DNA from: Barthelona sp. PAP020
Lineage: Eukaryota
Assembly: GCA_040182905.1 (NCBI GenBank)
Contig: JARQWU010000032.1
Location: 1 to 62,323, forward strand
Reading direction: 5' to 3'
DNA: 62,323 nt
Position numbers and translations under genes: made by a program. Shown here piece after piece: positions 21,013-53,045 of this stretch; position 1 is the first letter of the stretch; the number at the start of each line of letters is the position of its first letter. The notes below the pieces were generated by a model. It made no database searches. It saw only the letters and a program-made list of their open reading frames with translations, and was not told where the DNA came from.

Positions 21013-21489
21013 ATGAAGTATTCTATTTTACAAAAAGTGAGCGATGATAGATCTTATTTTGAATACACGGTGAAAAGAAATAAATCCAAATATTCGATCA
21101 AACTCCTAAGTTTTTTATGTTTACCTCTTTTATTTGCTATTTTTTTTAAAAGAACTTCATTAATTTTAATTTTTGGTTTGATTTTTTGCGTTTTATTTTT
21201 TTTAAAACTGAATGAAACAAAATCTGAGAGTTTGCGTATTTATTCCCCTTGGACTATCGAAGTTCAAACAAATTCATTTTTGAAAAAAAATAGTTATAGT
21301 TTAGCAATTGGAGATATCAAGCATATGATAATTAATGAAGTCATAAATTTGGGCCAAATTTATTATGTTCTTCAATTTGTTCCTAAATCATCAGATTTGC
21401 CAGTGATTACCACGTTTCCTCACATTTTACCCAAATTAAATGATATCAAAAATATATACAATGAATTGAGTGATATCTTTCCATTATAA
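21013..21489 (+). CDS. PIGH: GPI-GlcNAc transferase subunit PIG-H/Gpi15
   Basis: Two N-terminal transmembrane segments, then ESLRI...IKHMIINEVI...IYYVL...FPHILPKL..I..IY, typical of the PIG-H domain. Confidence 0.75.
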   Translation: MKYSILQKVSDDRSYFEYTVKRNKSKYSIKLLSFLCLPLLFAIFFKRTSLILIFGLIFCVLFFLKLNETKSESLRIYSPWTIEVQTNSFLKKNSYSLAIGDIKHMIINEVINLGQIYYVLQFVPKSSDLPVITTFPHILPKLNDIKNIYNELSDIFPL

Positions 21490-21752: not shown

Positions 21753-24515
21753 ATGAAAAATTATTCAGACGAAACTGTAACAAATGCTGTTGGTCGTGTA
21801 TTACCAAAATATATTGATGGTTATGGTGAGGTAAGACCTTTTAAAGGGGCCTTTGCTGTTGAACCTCGCACTGATGTTGTTAGACCCAGTTGCCAAGTTA
21901 GATTTGACAAGCCTGGTGATTGCAAGATTGTTGAAAATTTGGAACAAGCAATGGATCTCTGTGGTTTGGATAATGGAATGACTATAAGTTATCACCATCA
22001 TTTGCGTAATGGAGATGCTGTTTCCAATTTAATTTTTGATATTATTGCCAAGAAAGACGTCAAGGATATTGAATTGGCCCCTTCATCCGTTCATCCCATT
22101 CAAAAGCCTATGATTCCCTTAATTAAAAATGGCAATGTAACAAAGATTCACACTGGAACAAATGGACCTGTTGGTAAATACTGTTCTGAGGGTAACTTAA
22201 AGGATGTTGTCATTGTGAGATCTCACGGAGGCCGTGTTAGAGCCATTCAAGACGGTGATATTAATATTGATATTGCTGTTATTGCTGCTTCTGCTTGTGA
22301 TCCCTGTGGTAATTGTACTGGTATCATTGGAAAGTCGGCTTGTGGTCCTCTTGCTTATGCTGAAGCTGATTCACGTTGGGCTAAAAAGGTTATTGTTGTT
22401 ACTGACAATTTGGTTCCATTCCCATGTACACCTCTTTCAATTAGCGGAACCAATGTTGATTACATTGTTGTTGTTGATTCCATTGGTGATCCTAAAAAAA
22501 TTGCCTCATCTACTGTTGTTCTTGCCAAGTCTGAACCTGGTCTAAGTCTTGCAAAGACTGCTGCTAAAGTTATTGCACATTCTGGTGTTATGGTTGATGG
22601 TTTTTCATTCCAAGCTGGTGCTGGTGGTGCTTCTTTGACTTCAGTCTTTTACCTCGGAGAAGAAATGAGAAAAGCTGGTGTTACAGCTGGATGGGCAAAT
22701 GGTGGTACTACAAAGGTTATTGTTGATTTGTTTAAAGAAGGATTGGTCGATAAGTTGACTACTTGTCAAGCTTTTGATATTCCTTCGATCGCTTCCATGT
22801 ATGATGATATTCAACATCATGTTGAAAGTAGCATTGATCAATATGCTAATCCTTATAATGGACATTGTGTTGTTCATAACCTTGATTGTGTTGTACTTGG
22901 AGGTACTGAAGTTGATGTTGACTTTAATGTTAATGTCAATACTCACTCAGATGGATATCTTCTTCATAATACCGGTGGACATCAAGATACTGCTGCTGGC
23001 GCCAAATTAACAATCATTACTGCTCCTGTCGCTCGTGGTAATAACCCCATTATTGTTCCTCGTGTTACTTCCGTCACCACCCCTGGTGAATGTGTTGATG
23101 TTGTTGTTACTGATGCTGGTATTGCCATTAATCCCAATAGAAAAGATCTTATTGAAGCTCTTTCTAATTCTCCTCTTGCCGACCAAATTAAGGATATTCA
23201 TGCTCTCCATGAAGAAGGTTGTCGTCGTGCTGGACGTGTTCCTTCAGCTCCTGAAACTTTAGATCACATTATTGGTGTTATTGAATGGCGTGATGGTACT
23301 GTTCTTGATGTTGTTCGTCAAGTCGCCAATCCCATTCCTGATGGAATCAAACTTAAATCCGATTGTCTTGTTGAAGTTGAGGAAGCGGATAAGAACAGTG
23401 TTGATGTTATTTTATATGATACTGCTCCTGTTGTTCCTGTTGATGAAATGAAAGCACTTGCAATGGAAATGCTTGAATTTTATGGTGCCAAGAATCTTCA
23501 TGTCATGATTAAGGATAATGTTTCAGAACGTTGGACTCTTCAATCTCGTCTTGAATATGCAATCAAAACTGCTGTTGGTTCTGACAAATGTTATTTAGCC
23601 CCTCTCTGTGAAGATGCTGAAAATCGTGTTCATAGACCCAAAGAAGCTCTTCGTCGTTCTATGTTGTATATTCCTGGCAGTTCTGCTTATATGATGGCCA
23701 AGGCTGATGGTGGTGCTGATTGTGTCATTTACGACATGGAAGATGCTGTTGGTTTGCCACAAAAACCTGAATGTCGTGTTCTTGTTCGTAATGCCCTTCG
23801 TGCTGTTCCATTTGGAAAAACTGAAAGACATATTCGTATTAATCAACATCAACTTGGTGTCGATGACATCCTTGATGTCGTTAAAAATGCCCCTCTTGAT
23901 GTTGTTTGGATTCCAAAGGTTGAAGATCCCATTGAATTTAAGAAGCAAGTTGAACTTATTAAATCTGTTGCTTTTGATCAAGATCATCCCCCTTATGTTG
24001 TTCCTCTCATCGAATCTGCCCTTGGTGTTGAACGTACCTTCGAAATTGCTACCGTTGATCAAGAATCTGTGATCGGTTTGTCCATGGGTTTGGAAGATTA
24101 TACCAAGGATATTGGCGCTGTTCGTACCAAGTCTGATCATGAATCTGAATGGGCTCAACAGCGTGTCAACAATTGTGCTGCTGCTTTCCAACTTCAGTCT
24201 TACGATTCTGTTTTCTCTGATTTCAATGATAATGAAGGTCTTATTGCTTCAGTTAAGCGTTGTAAAGGTCTTGGTTTTGTTGGAAAGAGATTAATTCATC
24301 CTAATCAAGTTAAGCCTTGTAATGCTGCTTTCTTACCTGAAAAGTCTGAATTGGATTATGCTCTCAAAGTTTCTGCTGCCTTCAAGGGTGCATCTGGAAA
24401 TGCTGTTGCCTTAGGAAAGAAGATGATTGATCGTCCAGTTTATCAAAGAGCTCTTCATGTTATCAAGTTGGCTCTTCAAGGAGGAATGATTGAAGGTAGT
24501 ATGGAAGATTATTAA
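21753..24515 (+). CDS. Trifunctional citrate lyase fusion: CitF (alpha, CoA/ACP-transferase) - CitD-like (gamma, acyl carrier) - CitE (beta, citryl-CoA lyase)
   Basis: CitF motifs NAVGR, GMTISYHHHLRNGD, RSHGGR, FQAGAGG, GGHQDTAAGA and WRDGTVLDVV. An ~85-aa CitD-like segment GIKLKSDCLVEV...MIKDNVSERWTLQSRLE. CitE motifs RRSMLYIPG, DMEDAV, IRIN, IPKVE, IES, GLEDY and IHPNQV. One uninterrupted ORF; the first ATG is at 21753. Confidence 0.9.
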   Translation: MKNYSDETVTNAVGRVLPKYIDGYGEVRPFKGAFAVEPRTDVVRPSCQVRFDKPGDCKIVENLEQAMDLCGLDNGMTISYHHHLRNGDAVSNLIFDIIAKKDVKDIELAPSSVHPIQKPMIPLIKNGNVTKIHTGTNGPVGKYCSEGNLKDVVIVRSHGGRVRAIQDGDINIDIAVIAASACDPCGNCTGIIGKSACGPLAYAEADSRWAKKVIVVTDNLVPFPCTPLSISGTNVDYIVVVDSIGDPKKIASSTVVLAKSEPGLSLAKTAAKVIAHSGVMVDGFSFQAGAGGASLTSVFYLGEEMRKAGVTAGWANGGTTKVIVDLFKEGLVDKLTTCQAFDIPSIASMYDDIQHHVESSIDQYANPYNGHCVVHNLDCVVLGGTEVDVDFNVNVNTHSDGYLLHNTGGHQDTAAGAKLTIITAPVARGNNPIIVPRVTSVTTPGECVDVVVTDAGIAINPNRKDLIEALSNSPLADQIKDIHALHEEGCRRAGRVPSAPETLDHIIGVIEWRDGTVLDVVRQVANPIPDGIKLKSDCLVEVEEADKNSVDVILYDTAPVVPVDEMKALAMEMLEFYGAKNLHVMIKDNVSERWTLQSRLEYAIKTAVGSDKCYLAPLCEDAENRVHRPKEALRRSMLYIPGSSAYMMAKADGGADCVIYDMEDAVGLPQKPECRVLVRNALRAVPFGKTERHIRINQHQLGVDDILDVVKNAPLDVVWIPKVEDPIEFKKQVELIKSVAFDQDHPPYVVPLIESALGVERTFEIATVDQESVIGLSMGLEDYTKDIGAVRTKSDHESEWAQQRVNNCAAAFQLQSYDSVFSDFNDNEGLIASVKRCKGLGFVGKRLIHPNQVKPCNAAFLPEKSELDYALKVSAAFKGASGNAVALGKKMIDRPVYQRALHVIKLALQGGMIEGSMEDY

Positions 24516-24837: not shown

Positions 24838-26535
24838 ATGAATTTTCCCTTAAATTATGAAAGAGTTCCATTTAGATTAGGAACTCGACGTATTGAAAGT
24901 TTTCATAAGCCATTGTTTTTGCCAATTTCAATGAAAAATGGTGAAATATTTGAAAACTCATATTCTTGGTTGAATGAAAGTGAAAATTATGACAAATCTG
25001 TTGATGATACTGAATCTATTGACAACCAAATATATAACAGTTATGAGCGAACATCTGTTGCTAATGAGCAAAAGAATGAATCAATTCTTAATTCAATTTC
25101 TTCACCAAATACTCGTACTTTTTCCAGCGCTTTTCCTCAAATAAATAAGGAAAAGCATGAACCAGAACTAATAAATTATTTTTTAAAACAACCTGTGTTT
25201 GCTTCTCCTGTATCTCCCATTATTAGTGTTAAGGATAACAGTCATATTGAAGAATTTACAAATATTCCTGATCAAAAACAATACGAATCTTTTACACCTG
25301 AAATTACTGTTGACAAAAGTCGAAACAAAAGTTCAAGAAATTCAATTTTGCACACAAATAAATCAAACCCAAATAACTCAGTTGTAAAGGATAAGAAAGA
25401 ATTAAAAGAAACAAAAGAAGATGAGTTGTTTTCAAATGAGCAGATGATATCATTTGGTGGTGGTTTAAGTGATGATTTAGACATAGATTATAAAGCTCTT
25501 GAAGATAATGAAAGAATAGTTCCAGAAGAAAAGGAACAAGAAAACGAGACCTTAAACAATTCTGAAATAGAGGAATTTTTGACCAATTTAAAGGCAAAAA
25601 ATATTGATAATAATAAAATAATCAAAGAAGAGACTAGTTTGAAAAAGAAAAAAACGAAACTCCCAACTAAAAAGGAAAAATTTCCATCAAAAAAAGGAAA
25701 ATCTCCAGCAAAAAAGAAAACACCCAAAAATAGAGCCACAAATCAGTCAACTGCATCAACAACTGAGAACACACCAGAATCTGACAGTTTTTCGGATTCT
25801 GAACAACTGGTAAATAACGGTGATGATTCAGAAGTGGTATTTGCAAAACCAAAGAATGGATCTGCCCGTAACAGACCTTTTCCAGATCGAAGAAACAAAG
25901 GTGAAAGAATAATCGCCATTGGATACGATCTCTACTATTGTGATAGGGATGGAAATCTATTTCTTCAAAAAAAAGCAGGTGAAATGACACCAGACAAAGA
26001 AACTATTGAGGAACGTCGAAAGACACCTGTTTCACCTTCAATTATTTATAAACATCTGCTGGAAAGTCAAAGCAGTAAGCAAGCCTCAAAACCATTAAAA
26101 ATTGCAAAAGTGTTCAATTTTGAGAACAAAAAATGGGAAGAAAAGCAACTTGTTGTTCCCAATAGAGACTTATTATATAAACCTTTGACAAGTGCAGAAG
26201 ATGGACTTCTTGTGAGTCGAAAGACTTCAAGTAAATTGTCCAACATCCAGATTGAAACAGGAATACTTCTTATTGAACCGGGAAATCACACTTCCTTTTC
26301 AAACAGTCAGAATAACCATTTAAACTTTTATATTTTGCGTGGTGAAGCATTAATACAATTGGGAGCAGAGATGAAAAAGAATGCGGAAGTTGTTGAAGAT
26401 GTTACCCAACTGCAAATACTTCCAGCATACGTTAATTGTACAATTGAAATACCGCCTCACAACTACTATTCAATTGTTAATGTGAGCAAAACAAACAAAC
26501 TTAAGATACTCTACCATATTGTTCTTGATAAATGA
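24838..26535 (+). CDS. Centromere protein C (CENP-C/Mif2)-like
   Basis: Disordered Lys-rich middle, a CENP-C-motif-like SARNRPFPDRRNKGERII, and a C-terminal Mif2-type cupin (ETGILLIEPG...NSQNNHLNFYILRG...IEIPPHNYYSIVN...LKILY). The first ATG is at 24838. Confidence 0.7.
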   Translation: MNFPLNYERVPFRLGTRRIESFHKPLFLPISMKNGEIFENSYSWLNESENYDKSVDDTESIDNQIYNSYERTSVANEQKNESILNSISSPNTRTFSSAFPQINKEKHEPELINYFLKQPVFASPVSPIISVKDNSHIEEFTNIPDQKQYESFTPEITVDKSRNKSSRNSILHTNKSNPNNSVVKDKKELKETKEDELFSNEQMISFGGGLSDDLDIDYKALEDNERIVPEEKEQENETLNNSEIEEFLTNLKAKNIDNNKIIKEETSLKKKKTKLPTKKEKFPSKKGKSPAKKKTPKNRATNQSTASTTENTPESDSFSDSEQLVNNGDDSEVVFAKPKNGSARNRPFPDRRNKGERIIAIGYDLYYCDRDGNLFLQKKAGEMTPDKETIEERRKTPVSPSIIYKHLLESQSSKQASKPLKIAKVFNFENKKWEEKQLVVPNRDLLYKPLTSAEDGLLVSRKTSSKLSNIQIETGILLIEPGNHTSFSNSQNNHLNFYILRGEALIQLGAEMKKNAEVVEDVTQLQILPAYVNCTIEIPPHNYYSIVNVSKTNKLKILYHIVLDK

Positions 26536-30420: not shown

Positions 30421-31389
30421 TCAAACCCAATTGTAGGATTCATTTTTGGAAAAACAAACATTTTCAAACAATTCTATGGGTTGTTTCTTTTTAAACACTT
30501 CTGTATCTTCAGCATAATGGACAAATATGCTACCAGCGAATGGAATAGAGTTGATAGGTATTGATTCATAATAGCTTTGCTTTCTAGGAACTATTAATAG
30601 AAACTCTTTGGTGAAGATAACATTATATGATGGTATTTTCTCAACATTCTCTAAAGAATAAATATCAATCAAAGGATTATTGATATCTTCGTAAATAACA
30701 TCTAAAAATGGCTTGTAATAATCTCTAAATGGTAAATCTAACTGTTTCATAGCTTCTAAATACAATTCAAAAATTTCTTCAAAATTTAATGATGATATTG
30801 AAACACATTTGTGTTTAAAATTAAAAATAGAAATTTCAAAAACCCTTTCTTCTTGAAATGATGTGCGAGCAATTAAATCTAAAGGCAATTCTGGTAACAT
30901 GTCTCCAAAAGGTAATGGTAAAACTTGCATGTGTCTGTGTGGTTGTGAAGCTCCAGAATTTCTTCCAATATTTATAAAAGTGAAACAATTATTTCTTTTT
31001 GTGACCTCAAACATTAAATATAATTCTTTATAATCTAAGGGTAAGAATTGGGGTATAAATTTATGAGTCACCATTAAACCATGTCCTTCAACCGCTGGAT
31101 ATTTATTCAATGTCAAATAATAATCCTCGTTTAATGTTTCAAGATACAATTCAGTATGACTATCAGTGAATGGATCTTGAATTTTTTGATGCATCCATTT
31201 TAATTCATTCTCTTTTGAGTATAAACCAGGAACAGCAACTCTTAAACTCAAATAGACTTCACTTTCTTCACACCATTTTAAAACAGACACATCACTTCGA
31301 AGTGGAATAAGTTGTGCTTTTTCTAAAGCTTGAATTGACTTTTGCTTTAAAGCCATAATAATATTATTCAGATTCATTAGTATTGTCAT
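30421..31389 (-). CDS. Ap4A phosphorylase / ATP adenylyltransferase (Apa1/Apa2 family)
   Basis: DPF, LNKYPAVEGHGLMVT..F.PQ..PL, SGASQPHRHMQ (HxHxQ) and SYNVIFT....IVPR...INS..FAG motifs. Confidence 0.88.
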   Translation of the reverse strand: MTILMNLNNIIMALKQKSIQALEKAQLIPLRSDVSVLKWCEESEVYLSLRVAVPGLYSKENELKWMHQKIQDPFTDSHTELYLETLNEDYYLTLNKYPAVEGHGLMVTHKFIPQFLPLDYKELYLMFEVTKRNNCFTFINIGRNSGASQPHRHMQVLPLPFGDMLPELPLDLIARTSFQEERVFEISIFNFKHKCVSISSLNFEEIFELYLEAMKQLDLPFRDYYKPFLDVIYEDINNPLIDIYSLENVEKIPSYNVIFTKEFLLIVPRKQSYYESIPINSIPFAGSIFVHYAEDTEVFKKKQPIELFENVCFSKNESYNWV

Positions 31390-50930: not shown

Positions 50931-53045
50931 ATGGAAAATCAGCAGCAGAAAAATGTTGTTTTAGACGATATTACTTCACACAGTACAAAAAAAAACTCAA
51001 AAATTGTTTTGGTGGCCTTCTTTTTGATGGCTTGCTTTTCAATGTATGGTGAAATTATGTTATTACCTTCATTGCCTACTATCGTTAGAGATCCTAAATT
51101 TAGTTCTGGTGCAAATTATGTTGCCTGGATATTAAGCATTTATCTTTTAGTTGGTGCTGTTGTAACTCCAATTGCTGGTGCTTTGGGAGATAAATATGGA
51201 AAGAAAAGGATGTTGATGTTGTGCATGTCATTTTTTGCCATTGCTCAATTTGGTTCGGCATTTGCATGGAGCATGCCTTCTTTAATTTTTTTCAGAGGTA
51301 TTCAAGGCCTTGGTTTAGGACAATTTCCTTTGGCAATGGGTATTATTCGAGATACATTTCCCTCTGACATCATTCCAATTGCTTTGGGAATTGTAAGCAG
51401 TTCTTTTTCAATTGGTGTTACTATTGGTTTCCTTGGAGGCGGTTGGGTCTCTGAAAACTTTGATTGGCAGATTAATTTCTTCTTTTCTGGTTTTGGTCTT
51501 CTTTTCTTGTTAGTGTTCATTTATTTTTATGTTGATGCACCTTTTGTACCAAATAATATGAAATTGGATGTATTTGGATGTTTCATCATAGGTTTTAGTG
51601 TGTTGTCATTAATGTTTGGACTTACTGAAGCTAAAACAAAGGAATTTACTGAATTATCAGTTTGGGGATGTATCTTATTGGCAATTATTATATTTTTTTG
51701 GTTTGTTGTGCATTCATTAAGAGTAGAAAATCCATTAATTCCTAAGAAGCTTATTGAAATTCCTGAAGTTATTATTGTTACCGTTTCTGCTTTTGTTATT
51801 GGTTTTTGTATGTTTTTAGTATACCAAACAGTGCCATTCTTTATTTCTTTACCTATCAATTCATATTATGTTCCTGGTGTTGGTAACGTAACTATTGATC
51901 CTCCTTTGGGTTATCATGGAGTTACTTCTACCCTTACATCAGGTCTTTGGATGAGTGCAGGTGCATTATCTCAACTCCCAATGGCGGCTTTTGCTGGGAA
52001 ATATGCAAGAAAGTTTGGACCCATGAGAATGATGTCTTTCGGTTTTATTGGAAGCGCACTTGTCACATTCCTTATGTTTTATTGGAATAGAACTACTGTT
52101 TCAATAATTGTCACTCAAATTCTCTTTGGTGCAACAATTGCTCCTATTCAAGTGTTGTTGATGACATGTTTAGCTGATTATGCACCTCAAGAAATTTTTG
52201 GTACTGCTACTGGTTTTAATTCTTTGTTGAGAAGTATTGGTTCAACGTTGGGTCCTGTTGTTTCTGAATTGATTACTTCCAAATATTTGAGAGTTTTCAA
52301 TACTCCTGCTGGAACATTTTTTATGAATGAACCTGAGGGATACACATATTGTTGGTTATTAGCTGGTATTGTTAGTTTTATTTCTGGAACTATTCTGTTT
52401 ATTATCAGAAACAAAGCCGGAACATCATCTATCTCTTCTGAAAATGAAGAAGATCCATCAACTGTTGATAGAGAGTTGGCTGAATCAAAAACACCTGTAA
52501 ATTTGGAACTTTGTGAGAACGAAACTTCAAAATTGGAATTTGAAATTTCAAATCTGGTGGAAGAAAGTCAACATACTCAAATTAGTTCATTATTGCAAAA
52601 AGCCTTTGAAAAACATGAAGGAAACTTATGTGAAAGTGAAATTGTTTGTGAATTGAGAAAGAAAGATGCAATTGTGTTTGAACGTATTGTTATTGTTGAT
52701 GATATTATTGTTGGTTATGGATGTGTTGTTAAAGTTACCGTTGATTCTGAGACTGACAAAGTTTATGCTTTGGGACCATTGGCTATTTTGCCAAATTATC
52801 AAAGATTGGGTTTGGGAACAAAGATTGTTGAATCTTTGTTGACTTCTTTGAAAGAAATTGAGGCAAATGGTTGTGTTGTATTGGGTGAGTTTGATTTTTA
52901 CAATAGATTTGGTTTTGAAAGAGATGAAGAAGTAACTTCAGCTTTTTCTCAAGATCATTTTTTGACAGTCAAATTTGGAAATGAAGATTTTAAAGGTCTT
53001 GTTGAATATGATGAGCTTTTTTACAAAAGTGAAATTGATTCTTGA
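50931..53045 (+). CDS. MFS drug:H+ antiporter (14-TM, DHA2/EmrB-QacA-like) fused to a C-terminal YhbS-like GNAT acetyltransferase
   Basis: MFS motif A (GALGDKYGKKRML), RGIQGLG, LGGGWVSENFDWQ, DVFG and ENPLIP. The C-terminal ~165 aa contains ALGPLAILPNYQRLGLGTKIV (acetyl-CoA motif A) and GCVVLGEFDFYNRFGF. The first ATG is at 50931. Confidence 0.85.
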   Translation: MENQQQKNVVLDDITSHSTKKNSKIVLVAFFLMACFSMYGEIMLLPSLPTIVRDPKFSSGANYVAWILSIYLLVGAVVTPIAGALGDKYGKKRMLMLCMSFFAIAQFGSAFAWSMPSLIFFRGIQGLGLGQFPLAMGIIRDTFPSDIIPIALGIVSSSFSIGVTIGFLGGGWVSENFDWQINFFFSGFGLLFLLVFIYFYVDAPFVPNNMKLDVFGCFIIGFSVLSLMFGLTEAKTKEFTELSVWGCILLAIIIFFWFVVHSLRVENPLIPKKLIEIPEVIIVTVSAFVIGFCMFLVYQTVPFFISLPINSYYVPGVGNVTIDPPLGYHGVTSTLTSGLWMSAGALSQLPMAAFAGKYARKFGPMRMMSFGFIGSALVTFLMFYWNRTTVSIIVTQILFGATIAPIQVLLMTCLADYAPQEIFGTATGFNSLLRSIGSTLGPVVSELITSKYLRVFNTPAGTFFMNEPEGYTYCWLLAGIVSFISGTILFIIRNKAGTSSISSENEEDPSTVDRELAESKTPVNLELCENETSKLEFEISNLVEESQHTQISSLLQKAFEKHEGNLCESEIVCELRKKDAIVFERIVIVDDIIVGYGCVVKVTVDSETDKVYALGPLAILPNYQRLGLGTKIVESLLTSLKEIEANGCVVLGEFDFYNRFGFERDEEVTSAFSQDHFLTVKFGNEDFKGLVEYDELFYKSEIDS

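Follow-up and report, generated by a model that had tools for sequence, protein, structure and literature searches.

Gene and domain composition

The 62,323-nucleotide contig JARQWU010000032.1 of Barthelona sp. PAP020 (assembly GCA_040182905.1), referred to here in its entirety as the window, encodes on its forward strand a single-chain protein in which parts resembling the CitF, CitD and CitE subunits of bacterial citrate lyase are joined in that order (F-D-E). The middle part, which is without the serine that bears the prosthetic group, is written CitD*. The 920-codon open reading frame (ORF) is unbroken when read from the sequence, and has no N-terminal extension since an in-frame stop lies 7 codons 5' of the ATG, in agreement with an earlier, sequence-only reading of the locus that reported no obvious targeting presequence. 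The features of the gene are as follows.

21753..24515, + strand: coding sequence, 920 aa, 99.6 kDa, single-chain CitF-CitD*-CitE
21777..23330, + strand: CitF domain, CoA-transferase, residues about 9-526 (Pfam CitF, TIGR01584 and PDB matches)
23343..23588, + strand: CitD-like domain without prosthetic-group serine, residues about 531-612 (Pfam ACP, CitD profile, model)
23355..23357, + strand: Lys535, at the position of E. coli CitD residue Ser14 (profile alignment)
23643..24479, + strand: CitE domain, TIM-barrel acyl-CoA lyase, residues about 631-909 (Pfam, alignment, fold match)

The three-domain architecture proposed in the sequence-only reading was upheld by Pfam searches, with strong matches for the two outer domains and a match below the cut-off for the middle one. 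Pfam CitF matched residues 57-524 (E 9e-141), the NCBIfam citF model TIGR01584 gave 519.9 bits, over its equivalog cut-off of 501.45, and the CitF part matched PDB entries 2hj0 (E 2e-128) and 1xr4 (E 2e-120). Pfam HpcH_HpaI matched residues 635-850 (E 1e-36). Within the CitE part, D661, E663, D664, R695, E754, D782 and D893 align with E. coli CitE, are invariant in 17/17 F-D-E fusions, and correspond by motif and spacing to the Mg-binding and catalytic set of CitE-like enzymes (PMC3832036). The fold of the CitE part matched malyl-CoA lyase and CLYBL (Z 33, root mean square deviation 2.1-3.3 A, about 283 residues). No ATP-citrate lyase (ACL) family of Pfam or NCBIfam matched the fusion, and CitF, ACP and HpcH_HpaI cover the chain.

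A carrier domain without its serine

The middle domain was matched by Pfam ACP/MdcD at residues 535-606 (E 2.7e-4; 21.6 bits against a cut-off of 25.1), by the citD model TIGR01608 at 18.0 bits (below its cut-off of 63.5), and, at E 2.3e-5, by a custom profile of prokaryotic CitD made from 16 standalone and 13 fused sequences. Lys535 stands in the place of Ser14 of E. coli CitD, which we take to be the site bearing the prosthetic group. This column holds Ser in 29/29 standalone CitD sequences, and in 40 fused prokaryotic CitD-CitE loci it holds Lys or Arg in 38 and Ser in none, the remainder being one Glu and one truncated sequence. Among the 17 F-D-E proteins there are 3 Lys, 2 Arg, 12 Gly and no Ser, and within the best 120 short matches listed Arg or Lys is found in 118 of the 119 aligned sequences. 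Judged from these alignments, the loss of the carrier serine is inherited from the prokaryotic CitD-CitE fusions, since these carry Lys or Arg at the serine site. The description of the chain as a complete citrate lyase therefore has to be given up: its CitD part lacks the serine, and hence it is not a complete holo-type enzyme.

CitD* is predicted to form a folded domain held in place against the barrel, rather than a decayed linker, because the CitD*-CitE model (residues 527-920, from 126 sequences) is confident across the domain, with a mean predicted local distance difference test score (pLDDT) of 94 and a predicted template modelling score (pTM) of 0.92. The full-length model was weak (pLDDT 74, pTM 0.49), and nothing about how the domains are arranged is read from it. 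TIM barrel matches filled the fold searches that included the middle domain, and a sequence search found no solved relative of a standalone CitD.

Prokaryotic relatives and maturation genes

Prokaryotic relatives were studied in the best 80 of 135 loci found by two peptide patterns, which constitute a biased sample. The triple fusion occurs in 0/80 of these loci, and every one of the 60 that hold CitE has (D)E followed by F, so that the operon collapse first proposed is not a collinear one, the fusion being in the order F-D-E. A further correction is that CitD and CitE are already fused in metagenome-assembled genomes (MAGs) of Bacteroidota, Chlorobi, Calditrichota and Bipolaricaulota, with 37-42% identity over the last 394 residues of the window protein. 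A CitD-CitE fusion has also been reported, in the part of the paper available with no comment on the serine, for Ignavibacterium album, which has the CitF plus CitD-CitE two-gene module (IALB_1146/1147; PMC3362086) and is known here from that paper. Plasmid matches (best 10 of 589) were separate-gene operons only.

Maturation of citrate lyase needs CitC, CitG and CitX (PMC10798043). Whole-genome searches of 50 of the 80 locus genomes found citC, citG and citX each over cut-off in the same 17 genomes, namely 14/14 with a serine-bearing CitD and 3/36 with a serine-less fusion; the other 33 of these 36 are without all three genes. This co-occurrence is confounded by kinship, with 14 Synergistota set against mostly Bipolaricaulota/'Thermotogae', and is drawn from MAGs of unstated completeness. 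The three exceptions, however, are spirochaetes with a second, serine-bearing CitD beside citC/citX/citG and, on gene content, appear to go the way predicted by a link between carrier and maturation. Of the 80 citF loci, 9 encode a citrate-synthase-fold citryl-CoA lyase (the copy in L063 above cut-off), and 8 of these 9 have no CitE. The genomes of these 8 yielded no ACP, and the 4 of them that were searched for CitE-type proteins gave no match over cut-off, a gene content that shows related CitFs apparently able to dispense with a carrier.

The neighbours of the 80 citF loci include an HD protein (59), LeuC-type (45), LeuD-type (36), isocitrate dehydrogenase (IDH)-type (20) and PrpD-type (5) genes. 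The small HD-domain protein (L018:4355-4933 and 58 further loci) is the most constant citF neighbour, occurring beside both lyase types and whether or not the serine is present. In Synergistota loci (L004, L008, L011 and others), HD, an IDH-type gene and two LeuC/LeuD pairs accompany a serine-bearing citDEF, the same neighbourhood as in serine-less modules. Loci of Calditrichota (L033, L059, L061, L063 and L066) and of archaea (L002 and L003) hold CitF, citryl-CoA lyase and HD with no CitD/CitE, and IDH-type and PrpD-type genes also lie beside CitF/citryl-CoA lyase in the Calditrichota loci.

Distribution among protists

In the best 120 of 6623 protein matches to the fusion, the F-D-E order was found in 16 further proteins covering 83-100% of the query, comprising seven from six named anaerobic protists (metamonads and archamoebae) and nine protein clusters. 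Identity to the window protein is 63% in Barthelona sp. PCE, 55% in Kipferlia bialata, and 46-47% in Mastigella eilhardi (two copies), Pelomyxa schiedti, Mastigamoeba balamuthi and Paratrimastix pyriformis. The fusion is not peculiar to one genome; several lineages of anaerobic protists share it, and public gene models already label it, that of Mastigamoeba as 'putative citrate lyase subunit alpha and beta'. The Pelomyxa protein KAH3756870.1 (P0005) is a CitF-CitD*-CitE fusion extended at its N-terminus by a low-complexity stretch, and its NCBI name 'ATP-citrate lyase' is a mislabel. The 'ACL' of the Pelomyxa paper was suspected of being the fusion and rejected, as the supplement shows a different, genuine ACL sequence. 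P0026, P0027 and P0120 were not counted as F-D-E, being E-then-F chains with a partial CitE.

Other arrangements also occur. The 1097-aa chain of Stygiella incarcerata (P0007) runs LeuD-CitD-CitE-CitF and comes from a single transcript assembly; following operon order, LeuD-D*-E-F could be a second, independent fusion, the alternative being a transcript chimera. A free-standing LeuD-type protein of Mastigella eilhardi (P0286) is 75% identical to the Stygiella LeuD and is the sole eukaryote-labelled row among 120 listed LeuD matches; the eukaryotic LeuD sequences are 47-54% identical to LeuD genes beside serine-less prokaryotic modules. In two Anaeramoeba species CitF stands by itself, as several copies, and a lyase partner was not found in them.

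Evolutionary history

A CitF tree of 34 rows from a 50-row set places every named eukaryotic sequence in a single group with 100/100 support, and the same group was obtained in two further CitF trees, one of the latter being a quick version of a site-heterogeneous analysis. This group also contains a CitF-only subgroup with a planctomycete MAG (L001:734-2272; P0021-P0024), whose contig has 68% GC and whose genome yielded no ACP or CitE-like partner. Since the contig looks bacterial, the subgroup is either the donor's kin or a eukaryote-to-bacterium back-transfer inside the eukaryotic group. The F-D-E fusions form one clade in the CitF tree (81/97, not firm), with no resolution in the quick CitF tree.

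The prokaryotic origin put forward in the sequence-only reading is supported by a quick CitE tree, in which 19 eukaryote-type rows (Shimodaira-Hasegawa-like approximate likelihood ratio test 97) lie within a 70-row group (98) made up of fused prokaryotic CitD-CitE sequences. Eukaryotic CitE accordingly nests as a probable descendant of the serine-less prokaryotic CitD-CitE group of Bacteroidota/Chlorobi type. The sister group of eukaryotic CitF gets no resolution, whereas CitE points to Bacteroidota/Chlorobi-type fusions, and no donor lineage is named. In a tree of full-length fusions, the window protein groups with Barthelona and Kipferlia (99/99), and a second group (100/100) joins Paratrimastix to Mastigamoeba and one of the two Mastigella copies. 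A tree that keeps the metamonad fusions together was rejected by the approximately unbiased test (p 8e-7, LG+G4), for a group that follows the species tree but took in three extra rows picked after earlier trees. The simplest reading of these trees would be transfer of the fusion between metamonads and archamoebae; an old duplication with loss is possible because Mastigella has both copies. In outline, a carrier-free two-gene module (citD*E plus citF) would have entered eukaryotes from a prokaryote, F-D*E would have been fused probably once and LeuD-D*-E-F independently in Stygiella, and the fusion would then have moved between metamonads and archamoebae.

Expression and location of the Paratrimastix orthologue

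The spatial-proteomics table of PMC9746703 lists PaPyr9652, a 'citrate lyase alpha chain' of 1005 aa and 108.9 kDa, which is apparently the fused Paratrimastix protein P0136 (1005 aa, 109.0 kDa), the two being equated by length and mass and not by identifier. PaPyr9652 was detected with 51 unique peptides, 69% coverage and 1725 spectra, near IDH (1779); CitF makes up 59% of the fused chain, against the 69% peptide coverage. With the table columns taken as fractions 1-10, the last pellet (fraction 9) accounts for 39-49% of its signal, organelle fractions 2-3 for 12-13% and the supernatant for 5-6%. The share of fraction 9 is 31-41% for a proteasome subunit, and the peak of cytosolic IDH lies in fraction 10 (PMC9746703). 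These data, which concern an orthologue at 46% identity and not the window protein itself, fit a large, abundant, extra-organellar assembly, and the location outside organelles suggested for the Barthelona enzyme is probably correct. Citrate lyase is reported to contain six copies of each subunit (PMC6232273). The same proteome (PMC9746703, Data S1A) includes, with hundreds of spectra, PaPyr4135 and PaPyr5116, a 1728-aa '2-hydroxyglutaryl-CoA dehydratase' and a urocanate hydratase, hinting at amino-acid fermentation in Paratrimastix.

Proposed mechanism and substrate

The fusion is most likely an ATP-free CoA-transferase plus lyase that would run on free acetyl-CoA and split citrate, a reading held with modest confidence. 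Its components differ in strength, a free-CoA mechanism being very probable from sequence and, given that mechanism, citrate being reasonably probable as the main substrate and as the compound cleaved. CitF would convert acetyl-CoA and citrate to citryl-CoA and acetate, and CitE would break citryl-CoA down to give oxaloacetate together with acetyl-CoA; with acetyl-CoA recycled, the net reaction would yield acetate and oxaloacetate from citrate, with no ATP and no maturation enzymes. CitD* would now be structural, its conserved Lys/Arg possibly binding CoA phosphate, and the enzyme would be a large cytosolic oligomer passing oxaloacetate to malate/pyruvate fermentation. This two-step cycle is the simplest because there is no serine and, in the prokaryotic relatives, there are no loading enzymes. 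CitF accepts acetyl-CoA. CitE-like enzymes use free acyl-CoA esters and are promiscuous (PMC3832036), and cleavage of citryl-CoA by CitE is cited in PMC6232273. Evidence for citrate comes from the equivalog score of CitF, the citryl-CoA-lyase partners of related CitFs and the aconitase/IDH-type neighbours, and the neighbours of the prokaryotic relatives appear to fit the citrate/isocitrate/2-oxoglutarate segment.

Several observations weigh against this reading, and some of them would suit the same free-CoA chemistry with another tertiary hydroxy acid as main substrate, namely citramalate (to pyruvate and acetate), homocitrate (to 2-oxoglutarate and acetate) or 2-methylcitrate, an alternative that is unlikely but of appreciable weight. 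The CitE part scores 180.7 bits with the citE model TIGR01588, 262 bits short of the cut-off of 443.4 and so outside the citE equivalog; CitE from one serine-bearing operon is likewise under this cut-off (319 bits). The LeuC/LeuD/IDH-type neighbours cannot fix the substrate, since their best scores are to homoaconitase/isopropylmalate-isomerase and homoisocitrate dehydrogenase models, and the PrpD-type genes also count for another substrate. CitF segment 393-410 is, throughout the group, unlike that of E. coli, Streptococcus and Salmonella CitF, and the promiscuity of CitE-like enzymes points the same way. Citramalate lyase is built like citrate lyase. A second citrate-cleaving enzyme would be partly redundant where ACL is also present, as it is in Pelomyxa, which has a genuine one, and putatively in 18/36 serine-less genomes, where C-terminal citrate-synthase-fold matches in long frames are read as ATP-citrate lyase. 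Set against a different substrate are the CitF score over the citF equivalog cut-off, the pairing of CitFs that share the 393-410 motif with a protein above citryl-CoA lyase cut-offs, and I. album, with its CitD-CitE fusion, which is reported to possess a putative citrate transporter and no ACL (PMC3362086).

Cleavage of citrate on free acetyl-CoA also has to be set against operation in reverse, as a citrate-synthase substitute forming citrate from acetate and oxaloacetate and pulled by an aconitase-type hydratase and IDH to yield 2-oxoglutarate and glutamate. A strong full-length citrate synthase match in only 2/50 related prokaryotic genomes, the hydratase and IDH-type genes adjoining citF in prokaryotic loci and the abundance of IDH in the Paratrimastix cytosol (PMC9746703) speak for this; phagotrophs would, however, obtain glutamate from prey, and the examined part of the Paratrimastix table has no aconitase-named row, so that running in reverse is improbable. 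The want in that part of any row named for aconitase or isopropylmalate (PMC9746703) also tells against the main reading. At cellular concentrations the equilibrium favours citrate cleavage. A conventional holo-enzyme, with its cofactor on Ser536 or another serine, or with a separate holo-ACP supplied by host citD/citC/citG/citX, is very improbable. It would gain from Ser536, which adjoins Lys535 and is retained in 6/17 fusions (the window, Barthelona, Kipferlia and three others), but the same column is Cys or Asn in the other 11 and Gly in E. coli CitD, and the Lys/Arg prokaryotic relatives have none of the three maturation genes save where a second, serine-bearing CitD accompanies them.

Comparison with known systems

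The fusion shares with bacterial CitDEF (EC 4.1.3.6; E. coli citCDEFXG) the three subunit types, a CitF over the equivalog cut-off and intact CitE catalytic residues, but differs in being one chain in F-D-E order, with lysine for the carrier serine and a eukaryotic host. It would work like citrate lyase but fails the carrier-serine test, and is for this reason classed on sequence as a variant and not a plain CitDEF member. With the prokaryotic CitF plus CitD-CitE module it has in common a CitD-like domain fused in front of CitE and Lys/Arg in place of the serine, although CitF is a separate downstream gene there. Human CLYBL, malyl-CoA lyases and M. tuberculosis CitE resemble the fusion in fold, in Mg/Arg/Asp residues and in the use of free CoA thioesters predicted for it, but these stand-alone lyases have about 28-31% identity and no CitF/CitD in the same chain. 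ATP-citrate lyase (ACLY, ACLA/B; EC 2.3.3.8) likewise passes through citryl-CoA and is a single-chain fusion in some eukaryotes; it differs in its ATP-grasp/CoA-ligase and citrate-synthase-fold domains, unmatched here, and the predicted products of the fusion are acetate and oxaloacetate, with no ATP spent.

The architecture was thought to be undescribed in eukaryotes, and this stands to the extent that a partial search of the open literature (subscription papers lying outside it) found no paper describing a CitF-CitD-CitE fusion or an ATP-independent citrate lyase in protists, though public gene models carry the label. The parts available of PMC8887013, PMC10711303, PMC11316075, PMC10703272, PMC4989108, PMC11976288 and bioRxiv 10.64898/2026.09.23.753574 mention ATP-citrate lyase or nothing relevant, and the fusion was not found in the parts seen of the supplements of PMC8887013 and PMC11316075. 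The main text of the protist papers searched never names the fusion, and one proteome table has an abundant row for it (PMC9746703). PMC2996986, in the part available, has the standard operon only. The fusion runs counter to the statement that citrate lyase is restricted to prokaryotes (PMC3832036). Literature matches listed for glutamate fermentation by reductive carboxylation and citrate lyase were mammalian only.

A fuller scenario, put forward as rather doubtful, is that metamonads, archamoebae and a jakobid share an abundant, ATP-free, carrier-free citrate lyase, derived from a dead-carrier module that entered eukaryotes once, was fused twice independently and spread between eukaryotes. 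The enzyme might ferment citrate or glutamate carbon as an electron sink, the latter by the route 2-oxoglutarate, isocitrate, citrate, acetate plus oxaloacetate, with Lys/Arg holding free CoA at the old cofactor site. If true, a single-chain, maturation-free citrate lyase would fill a missing step in the energy metabolism of free-living anaerobic protists and would be a further case of an anaerobic gene moving between eukaryotes. A one-gene construct also offers a test of whether the widespread serine-less prokaryotic modules use free CoA. The fusion stands in public annotations, and its chemistry has close precedents.

Genomic setting

The fusion gene lies between two genes with eukaryotic matches, which are real though below the curated cut-offs.

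21013..21489, + strand: upstream neighbour, PIG-H-like (Pfam E 0.0019, below curated cut-off)
24838..26535, + strand: downstream neighbour, CENP-C-like (Pfam CENP-C_C E 5e-5, below curated cut-off)

The remaining window ORFs are eukaryotic in type by Pfam (kinesin, cyclin, Rer1, FYVE, U-box). GC content at third codon positions is 0.21 in the fusion gene and 0.17-0.26 in the other 29 long ORFs, and the flanking spacers (21-23% GC) resemble other window spacers; the overall GC of the gene is higher (0.39), the excess sitting in codon positions 1 and 2. By composition the gene appears native to the eukaryotic genome, in accordance with the sequence-only reading. An assembly chimera or bacterial contamination is extremely improbable, not only from these host-like values but also because full-length orthologues with identical junctions occur in 6 named protist species from separate datasets, the window gene groups with Barthelona and Kipferlia, and the prokaryotic loci lack the F-D-E order. 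Repeats around the gene were dismissed as chance low-complexity matches.

Of the 30 long ORFs in the window, the fusion gene has the strongest codon bias (four-fold codons ending in T 0.70, AAG 0.54, CGT 0.68), which may be a sign of high expression. No citC, citG or citX was found among these 30 ORFs in a Pfam scan of the window. Elsewhere in the window, Pfam identifies a 704-aa protein (50931-53045, + strand) in which an MFS transporter is followed C-terminally by a GNAT acetyltransferase domain, and a gene (30421-31389, - strand) resembling Ap4A phosphorylase / ATP adenylyltransferase.

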